Shown: positions 48,004-59,638 of the stretch, piece by piece | How positions within the stretch are numbered: position 1 is the first letter of the stretch | Layout of the letters: the number at the start of each line of letters is the position of its first letter | Source of the DNA: an uncultured Bacteroidales bacterium | GTDB taxonomy: Bacteria; Bacteroidota; Bacteroidia; Bacteroidales; Paludibacteraceae | Length of the DNA stretch: 59,638 nt | Direction of reading: 5' to 3' | Assembly: GCA_937911235.1 (NCBI GenBank) | Contig: CALDPN010000086.1 | Span: 1 to 59,638, forward strand | The notes under the pieces: model-generated | The model's input: only the letters and a program-made list of their open reading frames with translations | What the model was told of the DNA's origin: nothing | The model's database searches: none | Position numbers and translations under genes: made by a program

Positions 48004-49034
48004 CCCATTGGTATTAATGATAGTAAAGCTGTAAGTATCACATACAAAGGATAATATAATGACACTACTGGTGAATATGCTAAAACAGAGCTCTTTTTAA
48101 ATTTAATTGCCACAGGTAGCAAGATAAACATATCAATAATGTATTTTGCAAGCACCCAAAGTAGCAAAATAGGTTTGTAAAAAGACATTATATAAATGCC
48201 CACCATTAGGCATTGCATTGTGAAAACTAACACTCCTGCCCTTATTATAGAATAGTCTGTATAGTGCGGAGCTTTAGATGTCCAACGAGCTCTTTGGCGG
48301 AAAAAATCTATTATATTTTTGCTACCATCAATGGTGACTACTGCATCTAACGAATTGCAAAAATGCACGGTTCCACCGAGTTTTTTGGTACTTTCTAGCA
48401 AAAACATATCATCGCCAGATGGCACATCTAAAAGCACATCACATTTACCATACCACTCTTTCGAAAATGCTAGTGAACAAGCATTGCACATAAGTGGATT
48501 TTTGTTGCCTGCACTGCCCGCAGTAATACCCATTATGCTCAAGTATTCCATACTTTGATATGGGTATTTTCTACTCATTTTCACAGGACCTATCACAAGG
48601 TTTGCTGCAGAGTTTTTGTACGATGCCACCATCTTTTCTATCCATTTCTTTGGATATGAAACATCGGCATCGGCAGTGAGTATAATATTGGTTTTAGCCT
48701 CAGAAATGGCTTGTTTTATAGCCCTCTTTTTCCCTTCTCCAGTGGCATGTATCAACCTCAGCCTACCTAAAGAAAATAACTTTGACAATCGTATAAAACT
48801 AGCGGTTTCATCGGAAGAATTATCATCTACAATAATAAATTCCACCTCTCTATAAGTTTGCAGACTAAGAGACTCTAAGCAGTTTTTTATGGTTTTAGCT
48901 TCATTCTTAACTGCCATTACCACAGTTACCTTTTCATCATAAGACTCCAGAGGTTTTTCCTTCGGCAAACGAAAAAAACCTATAGTGATATAGATAATGA
49001 AAATAAAGTAGAGAGTAAATACAACAGTTATCAT
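47991..49034 (-). CDS. family 2 glycosyltransferase (membrane-associated)
   Basis: VTVVMAVKNE, EFIIVDDNSSDET, ADADV motifs and C-terminal TM helices. Confidence 0.8.
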   Translation of the reverse strand: MITVVFTLYFIFIIYITIGFFRLPKEKPLESYDEKVTVVMAVKNEAKTIKNCLESLSLQTYREVEFIIVDDNSSDETASFIRLSKLFSLGRLRLIHATGEGKKRAIKQAISEAKTNIILTADADVSYPKKWIEKMVASYKNSAANLVIGPVKMSRKYPYQSMEYLSIMGITAGSAGNKNPLMCNACSLAFSKEWYGKCDVLLDVPSGDDMFLLESTKKLGGTVHFCNSLDAVVTIDGSKNIIDFFRQRARWTSKAPHYTDYSIIRAGVLVFTMQCLMVGIYIMSFYKPILLLWVLAKYIIDMFILLPVAIKFKKSSVLAYSPVVSLYYPLYVILTALLSLIPMGWKK

Positions 49035-49706
49035 ACAGATAGTGAGAAACCGCTAACAGAGCTAATTAGTGCCACTAAAGCTATCACAAAAATTAAACAA
49101 CCAGTAGCCTTATTTAGAATCCAAAGTCCTCTAATATTGAATCTTTTTCTAAAGATACTGGCAAGCAATGTTAATAAGAACCACCATAAACCTGCTCCTA
49201 CAAACACAGAAATAATGCCAATTGCAATTTCTAAAAAGTGAGATTCAGAAGTTACGAAGTTATATTGAGCAAACAGACCAATGTAAAGGAAAATCATAAG
49301 CGGATTGCTCAGAGTAAGTGAAAACGAAGTAATATAATCAACCCAGTAAGAAGACTTTTCGCCTTTGCTTTTTTCAATGTTTTTAGCAGGGTTTTGGAAG
49401 AAAATATAGATACCAAAAACAAGAGAGTTTGATCCTGGCTCAGGATAAACCAAATATCATCATAATAGCACTACCCGCTATTTGAATGATAAGTTTATTT
49501 TCTTCGATAAAAGATAACACCACAGAAAGACCCACAATAGCAAGCAAGGCATAGAACGTGTCGGAAGACGCCGCTCCAAGGCCAGAAAAGAACCCATGAA
49601 GTCTACCTTTTTGCAGAGTTCTTTGAATAATTAGTATTGCAATAGGACCTACAGGAATAGAAGTACAAAGCCCTATAGTAATCCCCTCTATTATGGTACT
49701 AAACAT
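49031..49706 (-). pseudogene. LysE/RhtB-family exporter interrupted by a 37-nt insertion (frameshift)
   Basis: Track ORFs 49440-49706 (N-terminal part, VGPIAILIIQRTL) and 49031-49453 (C-terminal part, LTLSNPLMIFLYIGLFAQ) are two halves of one gene in different frames. Removing 37 nt restores ...SAIMMIFG-IYIFFQNPAKN... Confidence 0.7.
49412..49454 (+). other. 37-nt insertion flanked by 6-bp direct repeat ACCAAA, containing the 16S 5'-end / 27F primer sequence
   Basis: ACCAAA(49412-17) AACAAGAGAGTTTGATCCTGGCTCAGGATAA ACCAAA(49449-54). AGAGTTTGATCCTGGCTCAG at 49424-49443 is an exact 20/20 match to primer 27F (M=C). Confidence 0.8.
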
Positions 49707-49778
49707 AATGCAAATATCTAAATTTTTTTCGTCTTTTTGCTATAAAATCTAGATTTTCTTTTATTTTTGTAGAAAATT

Positions 49779-50546
49779 ATGAGCCAAAACAAAAAAATAT
49801 ATTTTATTTCCGACGTGCACCTTGGAGCAAGGGCATTTGACGACGATAGAGAAAGAGAGAAAAAACTAGTTCGTTTTCTTTCTTCTATTGAAAATGACGC
49901 CAAAGCCATCTACTTTTTGGGTGATATTTTCGACTTTTGGTACGAATATAAAAACATCATCCCAAAGGGTTTTACTCGCCTATTTGGAAAGTTGGCAGAG
50001 CTTGCCGATGCTGGTGTGGAAATGCACTATTTTATAGGTAATCACGACATCTGGACAGGAGATTATTTTGAGAAAGAGTTTGGCATGATAATGCACTACG
50101 ATGCAGAGGAAATGCAGATAAATGGTAAAACTTTTTATCTTGCGCATGGACACAGAACAGGCTACAGACCGCTTGCCGTGAAGATTATGCACTTTTTCTT
50201 CCATTCAAAATGGGTAAGACGCATATACAACCTTATCCACCCTTCTATAAACTACTACTTTGGATTAAAATGGTCTGCTCACAACAGAACATACAAACAC
50301 AAACAAGAAGACGCTAAGTATTTAGGCGAGAAAAACGAAACTCTTGTATGTTTTGCAAAAGAGTATCTTAAAACAAAACAAGTAGACTTCTTTATCTTTG
50401 GCCACAGACACGTGGTACTAGATTTGATGCTCACCAAAACCTCTCGCGTAGTTTACCTAGGCGACTGGGTTACCAACTTCACCTACGGGGTGCTCGATGG
50501 CACCGCATTTTCACTTGAGATTTACGAGGAGAGTGAAAATTTATAA
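49779..50546 (+). CDS. lpxH: UDP-2,3-diacylglucosamine diphosphatase
   Basis: IYFISDVHLG, LGDIFDFW, GNHD, GHRH metallophosphoesterase motifs in LpxH order. Confidence 0.85.
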   Translation: MSQNKKIYFISDVHLGARAFDDDREREKKLVRFLSSIENDAKAIYFLGDIFDFWYEYKNIIPKGFTRLFGKLAELADAGVEMHYFIGNHDIWTGDYFEKEFGMIMHYDAEEMQINGKTFYLAHGHRTGYRPLAVKIMHFFFHSKWVRRIYNLIHPSINYYFGLKWSAHNRTYKHKQEDAKYLGEKNETLVCFAKEYLKTKQVDFFIFGHRHVVLDLMLTKTSRVVYLGDWVTNFTYGVLDGTAFSLEIYEESENL

Positions 50547-50629
50547 AATTCCTTAAAAAACCTCACAACAAGCAATAATTTGCCTGTTATAACGTTTGTA
50601 GGTTAAAGACAAACTAAAAAATCAAAATC

Positions 50630-52456
50630 ATGAAAAAACTTTTATTTACTATCGGCACTTTGTGTGCGGTATTGATTTCTTCTTGTACAAATCAAGGTAA
50701 ATACACTTACCAAATTCCAGAATCTTTAATCATTGATGCCGATACAGCAACAATTATCCCCGATTATCAAAAGAAAATTGGCGACACCAAAGTTGTTTGT
50801 TATATTGTAGATACTTGTAGTAGGAATTATAAATACCCTGCACAAATAACAATGAGAGAGGTGGGTAATCCTATACTAACAGATAATGACATTCTTGCTA
50901 TTCAACTTGCTAAAATAGAAAATGACTCATTCTCCTTTTCATTCCCAGAGATGGTTGGAACAGGAAATATTAGTTGTGCTTTTGCAATAACAGATAGTAC
51001 TGCTTGTTATATTGACGCTTATATTGAGCCTGGCAAAACAAACAATATCTGGATTGATATAACAAAACCACAAGGACAATATGGAGATCTTTACGCTGTT
51101 TATTCTGACAATGCTTACAATGCAATTAATAATGCAATAAACAAACCTATACCTTATATCAGAGATTGGCGTGGTATTCCAGAAAATAAGTATATAGATT
51201 TAAATAAAAAAGAATTTATAGAAATGGTTATGCATCAGCATGACTCAATAATTGAATGTATTAATAAAGATTCTATAGCAAGTACGATTCGTTTTTACAA
51301 TGTTGAATATGCAAAATACGAAACATATAGAGTAATAGAACAATATAATCACTTAAAAGAGAAACTAAGCAAAAGAGAGATTGCTAAACATGAGTATATA
51401 TCATCGGAAGAATTGCAAAAAGTATTTAATGAATTAAATTTTCTTCCAAAATCATTATTTTATCCATATTGTAATGAATTCATAAATGAGACATCTATAG
51501 ACTTAAAAGATTATCCTGCAGATGTATATTCAATGTCTCAGCTTGCTCGACTTTGTGATAAATTTGATGAAAATCTTTGGAAAGACGCGCCAGAAGATGC
51601 TGCCGATTTTATTGGCGATGAATTCTATATTGCAGCCTATAAACATTATCGCACTCAATGTATAGAAGCTCACAAAAGAGCAGAAGGCGTATTGGCAGAA
51701 GACACACCTAATGTTGCTGACGCCAAGTTATTTTCTTCTATGATGCAAAAATACAAAGGCAGACCTACTATTGTTTACTTTTGGAGTGCACTAGATTCTT
51801 ACTCTTTATATGATTTGAGAAGAAATAAAGATAATCAATCGGCTGATACCACATACGTTTATATCGCAAACAGTTGGTCTTCTAAATCAGACTGGAATAA
51901 AACAATTAATCACATTAAGGGGAACCATTATTTTATTTCTAATGAATCTTTCAATTATATACTAAAGCAATATGGAAACAAACATGGACTTATTCCATTT
52001 AAATTGTATGTAGATGAGAATAGTAAGACTTATTCTTATCAAGATAGAACTCCGCTAGATCCAGAAGCTAAAGAAAATAAGCGTCCTGTTTACATAGAAG
52101 AAGCACCAAATGTACCAAATGATAGCTTAGTTTCTGCTATTGTAGAAAAACACAAAGGAAAACCTACAATTATAGATTTCTGGGGAGTATATTGCATACA
52201 TTGTATGAAAGAGATTAGCATAAAAGAAAAAACAAAAACCGATGATGTAAACTATATTTATATCACATGTACGGCAGATTCCCCACAAGATAAATGGGAG
52301 GAAACAATTAAAGACATAAGCGGATATCATTATTATATATCTACCGATGCTTTCTATTCAATACTAGAAAGTTATCAGACACGTTCCATTCCATTTAAAC
52401 TATACTACTCCGCAGACGGAAAATTAGAAAATACTGTTGTAGGAGCAGAGTATTAA
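50630..52456 (+). CDS. lipoprotein with two thioredoxin-like modules (first degenerate, second CxxC)
   Basis: Lipobox LISSC. KGRPTIVYFWSALDSYS (no CxxC) and KGKPTIIDFWGVYCIHC. Confidence 0.55.
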   Translation: MKKLLFTIGTLCAVLISSCTNQGKYTYQIPESLIIDADTATIIPDYQKKIGDTKVVCYIVDTCSRNYKYPAQITMREVGNPILTDNDILAIQLAKIENDSFSFSFPEMVGTGNISCAFAITDSTACYIDAYIEPGKTNNIWIDITKPQGQYGDLYAVYSDNAYNAINNAINKPIPYIRDWRGIPENKYIDLNKKEFIEMVMHQHDSIIECINKDSIASTIRFYNVEYAKYETYRVIEQYNHLKEKLSKREIAKHEYISSEELQKVFNELNFLPKSLFYPYCNEFINETSIDLKDYPADVYSMSQLARLCDKFDENLWKDAPEDAADFIGDEFYIAAYKHYRTQCIEAHKRAEGVLAEDTPNVADAKLFSSMMQKYKGRPTIVYFWSALDSYSLYDLRRNKDNQSADTTYVYIANSWSSKSDWNKTINHIKGNHYFISNESFNYILKQYGNKHGLIPFKLYVDENSKTYSYQDRTPLDPEAKENKRPVYIEEAPNVPNDSLVSAIVEKHKGKPTIIDFWGVYCIHCMKEISIKEKTKTDDVNYIYITCTADSPQDKWEETIKDISGYHYYISTDAFYSILESYQTRSIPFKLYYSADGKLENTVVGAEY

Positions 52457-52535
52457 GATATAACAGAACTCGCTTACATCCCACTAGAACTGTAGGCGAG
52501 TCATTGTTTATGTATATATGTGCAAAATTAATTTA

Positions 52536-53810
52536 ATGAAAAAACAACTAAATCGTAGTCTATTATTGGTTTTATTATGTGTGTTGGCAACAAATTTTTC
52601 GTTTGCTAATAATGTATTAATAAAGATAGAAGACCCAGAAGGTTTTTTTAAGCATATTACTTTACAAAGAACATATTTGGGAGGTATTTTTGATATTCCT
52701 GTTAATCAAACAGAATCATTAATACTTGCTCGAGGAACAGAAATTCAGCTACAGGTAGATAGTTTCTTTGTAGGATTTCTTATGAATCAGAATAAATATT
52801 GGATTAATCAACCTATTTTTATCACGGCAGGAGATACAATTACTTTTACTCCACATCAATTAAAAATTGATGGAGAGATTTTCTACAAATTAGTTGCATC
52901 TGGTACAAACAAAGACAATTATAACTTTCTAGCAGATTCACAAAATAATTATGGTGAACACTACCAAAGAAAAAGAGACGAAAAATTAGCCTTATTAGAG
53001 GAAAGAAAAAATAGTTTGTCTGTTCCTTTTTATAAATATGCTTTAGCAGAAATACATAACGAATATGCTTGGCAGATATATAGAAATAACCTTGATAATG
53101 ATGCTAACATAATAATAAATTCATTATCACCATATTGTTACATAGCTAGTTGGGAGAAATTCTGCTATTCTTTTCATGAAAAAGAAAGAGGTACATATGA
53201 CGCTTTAAACTACCTAACAAAAAACTATTTTGGCAGACCTCTTGAATATCTTATTACAAATTATATCGGTTGGTGTGTTAAAAATAACATTCAAATGACT
53301 CCTTGGATGAGGTCTGTTACAGAGAAATATGTGCATGATGATTATTACTTGTCGTGTATAAATTTCTTTGAAAAAATCACACAAATAAGCAATAAAATCT
53401 TGCCAGATAGCGTTCTTAATGAAACATATCTAATAGAGTATAAGACTAATAAAAAGATAACATTAAAAGACTTCTTTGCTAAGCAGACAAATGAATTGCA
53501 TTATATAGATTTTTGGGCGAGCTGGTGTACTGGATGCCGATGGGTAATTCGTGAGGCAAAAGAGGGAAAAGAGGTTCTAAAAAACGAACAGAAACAGTTA
53601 GTCTATTTCTCAATAGATGCAGATGAGCAAAGGTGGAGAAAAGCCGTTGCCGAGGATAAAATAGAGAACTATCCTAATTATTTAATAGTAAATGGGAGTA
53701 AATCGCCTTTATGTAAATACATTTATTTAGGTCCTATTCCACACTATATATTGGTGAATAAAGAAGGTAAGTTAATCAAACCCCAAGCAACTCGATTAGA
53801 AGAATTATGA
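52536..53810 (+). CDS. TlpA-like thiol:disulfide oxidoreductase-domain protein
   Basis: Signal peptide MKKQLNRSLLLVLLCVLATNFSFA. C-terminal HYIDFWASWCTGC thioredoxin motif. Confidence 0.6.
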   Translation: MKKQLNRSLLLVLLCVLATNFSFANNVLIKIEDPEGFFKHITLQRTYLGGIFDIPVNQTESLILARGTEIQLQVDSFFVGFLMNQNKYWINQPIFITAGDTITFTPHQLKIDGEIFYKLVASGTNKDNYNFLADSQNNYGEHYQRKRDEKLALLEERKNSLSVPFYKYALAEIHNEYAWQIYRNNLDNDANIIINSLSPYCYIASWEKFCYSFHEKERGTYDALNYLTKNYFGRPLEYLITNYIGWCVKNNIQMTPWMRSVTEKYVHDDYYLSCINFFEKITQISNKILPDSVLNETYLIEYKTNKKITLKDFFAKQTNELHYIDFWASWCTGCRWVIREAKEGKEVLKNEQKQLVYFSIDADEQRWRKAVAEDKIENYPNYLIVNGSKSPLCKYIYLGPIPHYILVNKEGKLIKPQATRLEEL

Positions 53811-53863
53811 TTAAAGTAATAACTATGAAAAAACTTTTATTAGTTATCGGAGCTTTATGTTGT

Positions 53864-54433
53864 TTATATTACCAATACCCTTTGCATTGGGATGTCGTGG
53901 GGTTCGGTGGGGATGTCGAGGTAGAATTGTTCGCGGAAGCAAACGCCTACGGTGAAGAGGTTGCTGTATTTTGAAAGGAATTTATCGTAGTAGCCTTTGC
54001 CTCTGCCTAGGCGGTAACCATTTGGTGAGAAAGCAACGCCAGGAACGAGAATGAAATCTATTGAGTTAGGAGTTAGGACGTGTTGATGACCGTTAGGGAA
54101 TAGTGAGGAGTTAGGAGTTAGGAGTGAGGGTTCTTTGATCCCATATCTACCAATTTGGTACTCGCCATTGAATTCACACGCTGTCATGTCATCGCCGTTG
54201 ATTACTGGAAGATAGACCTTTTTGCCCATGGCAAAACATTTGTCGATAAGCGAAAAAGTATCGATTTCATCGGGAAGATTTGCAAATAACATCACGCTTT
54301 TTGCATCTAAAAATTCGGGCATAGAAAAAAGATTATTATGCAGAATCTCCTCTCTTTTTCGCCTTTCATTAGCAGAAATAGCAGAAACTCTTACCTTAAT
54401 AATCTTTCTAAGTGCTTTCTTTTTTTCTAGCAT
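53864..54433 (-). CDS. 5-formyltetrahydrofolate cyclo-ligase carrying in-frame heptamer-repeat sequence
   Basis: DFILVPGVAFSPNGYRLGRGKGYYDKFL core motif. The loop LLTPNSSLFPNGHQHVLTPNS is encoded by CTCCTAA-type repeats. Confidence 0.8.
   Translation of the reverse strand: MLEKKKALRKIIKVRVSAISANERRKREEILHNNLFSMPEFLDAKSVMLFANLPDEIDTFSLIDKCFAMGKKVYLPVINGDDMTACEFNGEYQIGRYGIKEPSLLTPNSSLFPNGHQHVLTPNSIDFILVPGVAFSPNGYRLGRGKGYYDKFLSKYSNLFTVGVCFREQFYLDIPTEPHDIPMQRVLVI
54063..54130 (+). repeat. two heptamer-repeat blocks inside the cyclo-ligase CDS
   Basis: GAGTTAGGAGTTAGGAC (54063-54079) and GTGAGGAGTTAGGAGTTAGGAGTGAGGG (54103-54130). Confidence 0.85.
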
Positions 54434-57549: not shown

Positions 57550-58986
57550 ATGGCTTCACAAGAAGATGTTTTTAAAAAATTAGTAGCACACTGTAAAGAA
57601 TATGGCTTCGTTTTTCCATCAAGTGAAATCTATGATGGCGTGGGCGCAGTGTACGATTATGGTCAAAATGGTGTTGAACTAAAAAACAATATAAAGAAAT
57701 ACTGGTGGGACAGTATGGTGCTTCTTCACGAGAACATCGTGGGTATCGACGCTGCCATCTTTATGCACCCTACCACATGGAAGGCTTCTGGCCACGTTGA
57801 CGCATTCAACGACCCATTGATTGACAACCGCGACAGTAAAAAACGTTATCGTGCAGACGTTCTTATCGAAGAACAACTAGCAAAATATGACGAAAAAATA
57901 GAAAAAGAATGCGAAAAAGCGGCTAAACGTTTTGGCGAAACATTCGACAAAGAAATGTTTATCCAAACTAACGGTCGTGTTGGGGAATATGTACAAAAAC
58001 GTACAGAACTTCACACACGTTTCGCTCAAGCTCTAAACGACAACAACCTAGACGAACTAAAACAAATCATTCTTGATTATGAAATAGTTTGTCCTATTAG
58101 TGGTACTAAAAACTGGACAGACGTGCGCCAATTTAACCTAATGTTCTCTACAGAGATGGGTTCTACATCAGAAGGTGCAATGAAAATCTATCTTCGTCCA
58201 GAAACTGCACAAGGTATTTTCGTAAACTACCTAAACGTACAAAAAACAGGTCGTATGAAAATTCCTTTCGGTATTGCTCAAATTGGTAAAGCATTCCGTA
58301 ACGAAATCGTGGCTCGCCAATTCATCTTCCGTATGCGTGAGTTTGAACAAATGGAAATGCAATTCTTTGTACGTCCGGGAGAAGAAATCAAATGGTTTGA
58401 ATATTGGAAAGAAACACGTATGAAATGGCATCTTGCATTGGGCATACCAAGTGAAAAATATCGTTATCACGATCACGAAAAACTTGCTCACTATGCAAAT
58501 GCTGCAACCGATATTGAATTTGAATTTCCATTTGGATTCAAAGAATTAGAGGGTATTCATTCAAGAACGGACTTTGACTTAAAGCGTCATCAAGAATTTT
58601 CGGGCAAAAAACTTCAATACTTTGACTCCGAACTTGGCGAAAGTTACGTTCCTTACGTTATAGAAACATCTATCGGATTGGATAGAACGTTTCTTGCCGT
58701 TTTCTCTCACGCTTACAAAGAAGAAAAGCTTGAAGGTAAGGCAGCAACTTGCACAGTAGCAGGTCTTACTGAGGGTAAGAAGTGTACTGTATGTGGCACT
58801 ACAACCGTAGAGCAGACAGAGGTTGAAGCACTTGGCCATAAGTGGCTTGATGCAACTACCGAGGCTCCCGAGACCGAAGCTCCCGCAAAGAGCGGCTGTG
58901 GTTCCGTAGTTGGCTTTGGTGCAGTTGCAATCGTAGCAGTAGCTGCAGTTGCAGGCATGGTTTCTTTCAAGAAGAAGGAAGACTAA
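57550..58986 (+). pseudogene. glyQS: glycine--tRNA ligase, native for about 396 codons then fused to unrelated Cys-rich/TM-anchor tail
   Basis: N-terminus VFKKLVAHCKEYGFVFPSSEIYDG and class II motifs run through ...GLDRTFLAVFSHAYKEEKLEG. After about 58738 the sequence becomes ATCTVAGLTEGKKCTVCGTTTVEQTEVEALGHKW...GFGAVAIVAVAAVAGMVSFKKKED, and the anticodon-binding domain is absent. Confidence 0.7.
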
Positions 58987-59058
58987 TCTGAGAAAATCAG
59001 TACATTGAAAATCTGCCCTGTATCTTTTTGATGCAGGGCGCTAATTTTAGGTGATGAT

Positions 59059-59638
59059 ATGAATAAAAATTTAAAAGTCATTTCAGGTGTGCTTTCTGTT
59101 ATATTAAGTATTACGCTTGTTTTTACATCTGTTATATCAATTCTTTTAAGTACAGCAAGAGAATATTTCGTTTCAAGTAAGTTCCAGACACAGATTGATA
59201 ATACCGATTTAGCTTCGCTTACATTTATTCATAATGGTAACAAAATTACGCTTGAAGATTATGTAAAAGAATATGTGAACACAAACATTGACAATATCAT
59301 TATTGATAAAGGCGGACAATATTATTCTGACCTCTGGTTTCCGTTTGCAGACGCTTTGACAGACTTTACTGTTGATAAGGTGTTTTCCTCTCATTACGTA
59401 AATAAGCTTGTTAAAGACGAAGTAAAGGGCATTTTTGACTATTTTCTTTATAGCAGTGTTACTGAGGCAAAACAGCGAATTAAGGATGGTATAGCTCTTG
59501 ATGAAAATCCACAGTTAAATCCCGAGAATACTTCGAATTATGAAGAGAAAATAAGTGCACAGGTAAAACTTGCCGTGCTTAAATTCATTGAAGAAGAAAC
59601 GGGAACAAGTTGTGATAAAATAATCGTATTGTTTGCGG
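59059..59638 (+). CDS. N-terminally membrane-anchored hypothetical protein, partial (runs off window end)
   Basis: ATG at 59059, open for 193 codons to the window end: MNKNLKVISGVLSVILSITLVFTSVISILLS... Absent from the ORF track because it has no stop. Confidence 0.5.
   Translation, partial: MNKNLKVISGVLSVILSITLVFTSVISILLSTAREYFVSSKFQTQIDNTDLASLTFIHNGNKITLEDYVKEYVNTNIDNIIIDKGGQYYSDLWFPFADALTDFTVDKVFSSHYVNKLVKDEVKGIFDYFLYSSVTEAKQRIKDGIALDENPQLNPENTSNYEEKISAQVKLAVLKFIEEETGTSCDKIIVLFA

Follow-up and report, generated by a model that had tools for sequence, protein, structure and literature searches.

We found that the 37-nt insertion that splits a LysE-family gene in the window (the whole 59,638-nt stretch of DNA analyzed here, which is the entire contig C86 of bin G000) most probably arose in silico, as a chimera formed at a coverage gap when the metagenome bin was assembled, and not as a mutation of the organism. 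We put the probability of this reading at about 0.8. After a word that LysE and a Clostridial rrn leader have in common, the window follows Clostridial rrn DNA for 33 nt and then reenters LysE 4 to 6 nt before the point at which it had left. As would be expected of an assembly chimera, the inserted text is identical to a genome segment of another organism from this kind of community, it is absent from conspecifics, and other inter-organism joins are present. The organism itself probably lacks the insertion, which is unlikely to hold any biological lesson.

Insertion site and the LysE gene of relatives

A first-pass annotation had reported that the insertion contains a 20/20 match to the 16S rRNA primer 27F. 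This match is exact: AGAGTTTGATCCTGGCTCAG occupies positions 49424 to 49443 of the plus strand with 0 mismatches. Raising the tolerance to 3 mismatches brought up no other match anywhere in the window, nor did any of 100 shuffles produce one. The direct repeat that had been described also was found, with copies of ACCAAA at 49412 to 49417 and at 49449 to 49454 (both plus strand) bracketing the 37-nt insertion. Both copies are native LysE sequence. When the window was compared by BLAST with conspecific contigs, the alignments stopped at 49417, the last base of the left copy, and restarted at 49449, the first base of the right copy, with the same 6 query bases used twice; the right copy, where native LysE resumes, is the right junction. 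The window text spanning the insertion junctions reads ...GATACCAAAAACAAGAG... and ...CTCAGGATAAACCAAATATC..., and at the junction ...CTCAGGATAAAC is followed directly by CAAATATC....

The gene lies on the minus strand and, as the annotation had stated, is split into two ORFs, 49706 to 49440 (88 aa, ending in ...MMIFGLS and a stop codon) and 49453 to 49031. Residues 1 to 86 of the N-terminal half-ORF of this LysE family gene (49440 to 49706, minus strand) are native and are identical to those of P0002, the intact conspecific protein of 212 aa, and its last two codons (LS) and the stop come from the foreign patch. The mechanically called ORF 49453 to 49031 begins at a TTG within the patch. The native C-terminal part, which runs from FGIYIFFQNPAKN... 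to the stop (49031 to 49417, minus strand), is 100% identical to P0002 over 128 aa. P0002 itself reads ...AGSAIMMIFGIYIFFQNPAKN... and matches both halves in the window with 100% amino acid identity, so that neither half has decayed. There is no rRNA gene at the site, as the annotation had held; a Rfam search of positions 48500 to 50500 found nothing rRNA-like.

The claim that removal of the 37 nt restores an intact gene was borne out by the orthologous genes. At this site, the window is exactly 37 nt longer than the sequences of 5 congeners and 10 near-conspecific contigs, and an empty site with an intact 212-aa gene was seen in 10 of the 10 near-identical contigs and in 5 of the 5 congeners. 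The 10 contigs come from independent metagenome assemblies (Logan, ENA) and carry a 639-nt gene with 3 to 6 differences from the window halves, corresponding to a LysE gene identity of 99.1 to 99.5%; at the site, all 10 read ...GGAAGAAAATATAGATACCAAATATCATCAT.... The 5 congeners are 75 to 82% identical, and each is exactly 37 nt shorter. Over 12.9 kb aligned to five conspecific contigs, the insertion is the sole window-only indel of at least 5 nt. At the protein level, 62 blocks of the assembly collection contain P0002, and the C-terminal half has many homologues that are 96 to 100% identical and 212 aa long. The Pfam family PF01810 (LysE) was precomputed for P0002 (212 aa) and 120 homologues, with a full-length match to the family, and the JGI name for the relatives is "threonine/homoserine/homoserine lactone efflux protein." JGI metagenome contigs scanned for the left junction gave 0 matches, and exact protein look-ups of the 88-aa LysE half and of the window's LpxH-like protein, in a collection that may leave out records of the window's own genome, found none on record. 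These comparisons suggest that in the real organism the LysE exporter probably is intact at 212 aa, as it is in all of the conspecific contigs.

P0001, a 131-aa LysE fragment from another assembly, was considered as a second case of the insertion and was rejected, because the 10-N gap of its scaffold sits elsewhere in the gene. The scaffold (L168:1256-1900; ENA ERZ28633477 scaffold_2141, same species) has a 10-N gap that replaces 8 nt inside LysE, and this gap is the reason that the gene caller reports the 131-aa P0001; it is a second instance of scaffolding damage in LysE, at a different position. Separately, LysE (49031 to 49706) is 99.1 to 99.5% identical in contigs L162 to L167, whose flanking kilobases are only 88 to 97% identical; in L164, for example, one flanking stretch is at 89% and the stretch with the LysE start is at 98%. 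This contrast between LysE and its flanks may reflect mosaic conservation or a recent exchange of a small region among strains.

Origin of the foreign 33 nucleotides

The 31 nt between the repeats (AACAAGAGAGTTTGATCCTGGCTCAGGATAA) were scanned against one genome per prokaryote species, which gave at least 119 matching loci. Among the matches listed, all were in MAGs of uncultured Clostridia, "Clostridium sp." or Eubacteriales, the hosts being the guts of humans, mice, rabbits, chickens and ruminants, and the listed loci (at least 119) lay mostly at contig ends. The listed matches continue as GCTGGCGGCGCACATAAGACATGC / ACGCTGGCGGCGCACATAAGACATGCAAGTCGAACG in all but one, and that one differs by a single base. 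The continuation ACGCTGGCGGCGCACATAAGACATGCAAGTCGAACG indicates that a 16S gene begins at each matching locus. In the donor, an rrn of Clostridia type, the sequence goes on as ...GATAAACGCTGGCGGCG, and in many donor genomes the upstream leader reads ...GAAAATATAGATACCAAA, the same text that precedes the insert in the window. The best match among those listed was L115 (UMGS1968, human gut), which is exact over 53 nt (49398 to 49450); five more of the listed loci match the window exactly over 51 nt and thirteen further loci over 46 to 50 nt. The 16S likeness that had first drawn comment is real, with the correction that the similarity to an rrn operon extends over 53 nt (49398 to 49450) instead of 25 and points to a foreign lineage.

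Part of this match belongs to LysE. Native LysE and the leader share a word of 20 nt in the case of UMGS1968 (L115) and of 18 nt in five other loci. In Clostridial leaders, the shared word sits directly before AACAAG; in the window, it is native coding sequence of LysE, read as F-F-I-Y-I-G from the minus strand. The word (AAGAAAATATAGATACCAAA, 49398 to 49417, plus strand) is present in 10 of the 10 empty-site conspecific contigs and constitutes the left crossover. Since the shared 18 to 20 nt are native in conspecifics, only the 33 nt from 49418 to 49450 (plus strand) are foreign. They consist of AACAAG, AGAGTTTGATCCTGGCTCAG and GATAAAC, are found exactly in at least 119 Clostridia MAG loci, and correspond to the end of an rrn leader followed by 16S sequence of Clostridia type, of which they include the first 27 nt counted from the 27F start. 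The final 2 nt (AC) are equally assignable to LysE, and the ambiguity between donor and recipient at the right junction is just 0 to 2 nt.

The 18- to 20-nt identity between LysE and the leader is due to chance. For scale, dividing 8e12 position pairs by 1.1e12 possible words predicts that several 20-mers will be common to any two random genomes of 2 Mb. Among 301 genomes of the donor's family, only UMGS1968 came up when a longer identity on the left was sought, and it reached 20 nt; JGI contigs yielded 0 donors in which this identity was 21 nt or more. BLAST of the 119 Clostridial loci against the whole bin revealed no further patches from that lineage beyond conserved genes and rRNA.

The first-pass annotation had suggested primer or amplicon contamination incorporated during assembly or, as another possibility, a short insertion templated by the rrs 5' end, which we read as that of the organism itself. 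An artifact of assembly is indeed the best-supported reading, but a primer or amplicon as its source is not supported. Carry-over of the 27F primer or of a 16S amplicon in the library would explain the 20/20 match to 27F, as would a copy of the organism's own rrs, which shares the 20 nt plus GAT. The sequence on either side of the 20-mer argues against both. The exact match extends 6 nt upstream, into the Clostridia-specific leader (AACAAG), and 7 nt downstream (GATAAAC), whereas primers and 27F-primed amplicons begin at AGAG. Leader sequence cannot be part of a primer or of an amplicon started from 27F, and the patch thus would be genomic rrn DNA. With respect to the 27F/8F universal primer site (E. 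coli 16S positions 8 to 27), the 20 nt found here are identical to it, but they are preceded by 6 nt of native rrn leader and followed by 7 nt of 16S, all from a single Clostridia lineage, flanks that point to genomic rrn DNA and not to an oligonucleotide. By its sequence, then, the patch is genomic rrn DNA of a Clostridium-like member of the community.

The organism's own rrs 5' end was located at the end of contig C172 (Rfam SSU, 264 bits), where ...TACAATGA is followed by AGAG...CTCAG and GATGAACGCTAGCGAC; it also was read as ...TATATACAATGA, AGAGTTTGATCCTGGCTCAG and GATGAACGCTAGCGAC. When the insert was compared with this rrn leader and 16S start, neither flank matched, the 27F sequence lying between ACAATGA and GATGAACGCTAGC in the organism's own copy and between AACAAG and GATAAAC in the insert. 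The GATAA variant that had been noted after the 20-mer is present, the insert having GATAAAC and the organism's own gene GATGAAC. The 16S starts of ten congeners read like the organism's own, bar one Mollicutes-like stray contig, and the common pattern of own and congener rrs, in which CAA[T/C]GA precedes the 20-mer and GATGAAC follows it, is unlike the insert. A templated copy of the organism's own rrs is contradicted both by the mismatched leader and by the absence of the GATAAAC variant from that gene. The flanks of the 20-mer would refute carry-over as well as an own-rrs copy, barring a tailed primer of the form ...AACAAG-27F, and we attach almost no probability to either.

Among the 16S starts inspected, L020 (G021:C52:360-540, from a congener bin) is on a 1.6-kb contig, and its 16S start (GATTAACGCTAGCAGGATGCCTAATACATG...) is not Bacteroidales-like. 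This contig is probably a contaminant in bin G021.

Assembly, in vivo capture and in vitro switching

Bin G000 comprises 214 contigs (2.08 Mb, 37% GC, N50 of 15 kb) and is estimated to be 90.9% complete and 5.6% contaminated. Within it, 21 contig ends overlap other ends by exactly 55 nt, and the only other end overlaps of 12 to 200 nt involve two ends, at 26 nt. Exact 55-nt end overlaps are what we take to be the signature of contigs made by (meta)SPAdes with k values of 21, 33 and 55. This is the default k series of SPAdes, with a final k of 55. Of the 119 leaders listed, 63 have A immediately before AACAAG, 47 have T and 9 have G. Given this variable base, a graph with a k of 33 would branch at exactly the foreign 33-mer. 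If an operon like that of G042, in which ...GAGAAA is followed by AACAAG, were coresident, the unitig would end 3 nt earlier. The 33-nt length of the patch fits branching at a k of 33, although not uniquely, and depends on the leader variants in the sample.

These features are accommodated by an assembly chimera along the following lines. The bin may have been of low coverage, with a gap in k-mer coverage at the LysE site. The left LysE path would have entered the Clostridial leader by way of the shared word and come to a dead end at the highly branched 16S start, the foreign 33 nt being the first 33-mer common to leaders that differ just upstream of AACAAG and hence, presumably, a branching vertex. 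With read pairs linking the LysE contigs and no long overlap available, the scaffolder then would have joined them via a 1- to 2-nt overlap. Such a scaffolding step matters, because a pure de Bruijn graph alone cannot make the right junction, at which 0 to 2 nt or a 6-nt repeat is shared. The left junction is a further point against the assembly chimera: it shares 18 to 20 nt, 20 nt with the best donor, and a graph with a k of 21 needs 21. The missing left link (20 versus 21 nt) could be supplied by a strain variant, by read error correction or by one chimeric read.

In a simulation of the join, the observed text was obtained only from a 32- to 33-nt foreign tail and a right contig starting with ATACC, ACCAAA or CCAAA, and no overlap of more than 4 nt reproduced the observed join. 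The rule presupposed for the join is that the SPAdes scaffolder would take overlaps as short as 6 nt and below. The simulation is consistent with a scaffolder join and is not proof of it. A join by the SPAdes "gap closer" (overlap of at least 10 nt, few mismatches) was considered and rejected; judged by eye, the 10-nt end overlaps had about 6 mismatches.

[quoted passage not shown] The insertion resembles interspecies chimeric MAG contigs (cf. GUNC, PMC8201837; DeepMM, 10.64898/2026.10.15.759294) in that a second community member is joined at a short shared word, marker-based quality scores do not see the join, and a spurious gene defect results. The classical form of such a contig occurs at the end of this same contig, where GlyRS passes into a foreign GlyRS and then into a Firmicutes segment. 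Unlike in classical chimeric contigs, the foreign piece in LysE is only 33 nt long, after which the sequence goes back to the right place in the same gene; because of this return, it mimics a frameshifting micro-insertion with a target-site duplication and not a contig that switches organism. The return junction also differs from that of classical chimeras in having no shared k-mer, and it needs a scaffolding or gap-joining step.

The combination of two junctions, a micro-insertion and microhomology also is typical of a real template switch or of SPDIR, and this weighs against an assembly chimera. In a real event of this type (like SPDIR or HFIR, homology-facilitated illegitimate recombination), single-stranded rrn DNA of a coresident Clostridium would have entered the Bacteroidales cell, annealed at the 18- to 20-nt identity, been copied or integrated at the replication fork, and returned to LysE at the GATA..AC / ACCAAA microhomology. 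The two junctions within 37 nt, the homologies of 18 to 20 nt on the left and 2 to 6 nt on the right, and a donor from another genome all would suit such an event. In SPDIR, the recipient segment between two annealing sites is replaced, and the process has been demonstrated, at very low frequency, in mutants of Acinetobacter baylyi (bioRxiv 10.1101/2023.11.22.568220). The likeness to the putative event here lies in a microindel of tens of nucleotides that reproduces ectopic (possibly foreign) DNA exactly and has its crossovers at microhomologies; the difference is that the recipient here has a 4- to 6-nt duplication. As to crossover homology, the 33-nt donor has 18 to 20 nt on the left and only AC, or the gapped GATA..AC, on the right. 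The recipient lost zero bases and had 4 to 6 nt (ACCAAA) duplicated, which is not a segment replacement of the SPDIR type.

We consider in vivo capture unlikely on several further grounds. The wild-type frequency of SPDIR is estimated at about 1e-12 to 1e-13, and a 4- to 6-nt duplication is not a replacement between two annealing sites. The donor piece stops precisely at the start of the 16S gene, a place where assembly graphs break and at which a biological event would have no reason to stop. No other assembly of the species has the insertion, and the gene halves on its two sides are free of decay. Finally, inter-phylum joins on the same contig truncate the essential GlyRS gene, whose continuation is on another contig, indicating that joins of this kind are produced by the assembly itself. 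Were the insertion real, it would document a rare, naturally occurring case of microindel mutagenesis with foreign DNA as the template. It then would represent, improbable as we hold this to be, the cross-phylum capture of environmental DNA by a gut Bacteroidales in a wild population, the captured piece being 33 nt of Clostridial leader and 16S start.

A chimera made in vitro is the other route by which LysE and the leader could have been joined. During library PCR or whole-genome amplification, the template could have been switched from LysE to the leader at the 18- to 20-nt identity, and at low depth the chimeric reads would enter the consensus. An identity of this length is long enough for priming in jumping PCR, and a single chimeric read could give the left link that lies beyond a graph with a k of 21 and a 20-nt identity. 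It is unlikely, however, that one molecule underwent two switches within 37 nt; moreover, the right junction is almost without homology, and amplification of the library would have to be assumed. In vitro switching is possible for the left link and unlikely for both junctions, and as an account of the whole insertion we find it very doubtful.

Joins in GlyRS and indels elsewhere in the window

The assembly chimera proposed for LysE has counterparts at the end of the same contig. The GlyRS gene (57550...) is 97 to 100% identical to conspecific contigs as far as 58370. A switch occurs at 58370/58371, within the conserved motif REFEQMEMQFF. From 58371 to 58737 (plus strand), the frame is kept and the identity to conspecifics falls from 97 to 100% to about 70%; we take this segment to be the GlyRS of another organism. 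The remainder of the contig, 58738 to 59638 (plus strand), is a Firmicutes-like tail that encodes a Cys-rich membrane-anchor C terminus, and a 193-aa open ORF, in frame with the truncated GlyRS. From 58968, the tail has 82 to 84% nucleotide identity to contigs that carry 3x FemAB and SdpI in a Gram-positive context. It was looked for in 25 congeners and was not found in them.

GlyRS truly continues on contig C175 (positions 1 to 891) of this bin, with 97.5% identity to the conspecific gene. C175 starts at position 958 of the GlyRS gene, about 136 nt past the point at which C86 departs from the true sequence. The real genome had a gap in assembled coverage at GlyRS, and the contig end was extended by foreign sequence via shared words. 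Because the true continuation lies on C175, the apparent 478-aa GlyRS fusion protein is not real. We infer that the GlyRS extension came about by the same process as that proposed for LysE. A common origin of the tail and the leader in one Clostridial lineage was considered, but the tail was not found in the five best donor genomes, and the two foreign pieces are therefore probably of different sources.

The practical value of these results is a warning. The bin is a species representative, and one of its contigs has at least three inter-organism joins. A 33-nt inter-phylum patch can be taken for a frameshift accompanied by a target-site duplication, and the chimera detection tools known to us are unlikely to see a patch of that length. 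In low-coverage short-read MAGs, pseudogene calls, flags of "primer contamination" and statements on gene content need a check against conspecifics or reads.

A 3.3-kb block at 50502 to 53860 also was considered as a chimera and was rejected, since it is syntenic and 95% identical in a congener (G011, C23:174496-176391). The block contains thioredoxin-fold lipoprotein genes and is absent from 6 of 6 near-conspecific contigs, which have about 50 to 60 nt in its place; it has the appearance of a native variable region. Just one more window-only indel of at least 4 nt was present in the 12.9 kb aligned to conspecific contigs, a 4-nt insertion, GAAT, at 54098 to 54101, in a repeat-rich stretch of the 5-formyl-THF cyclo-ligase gene.
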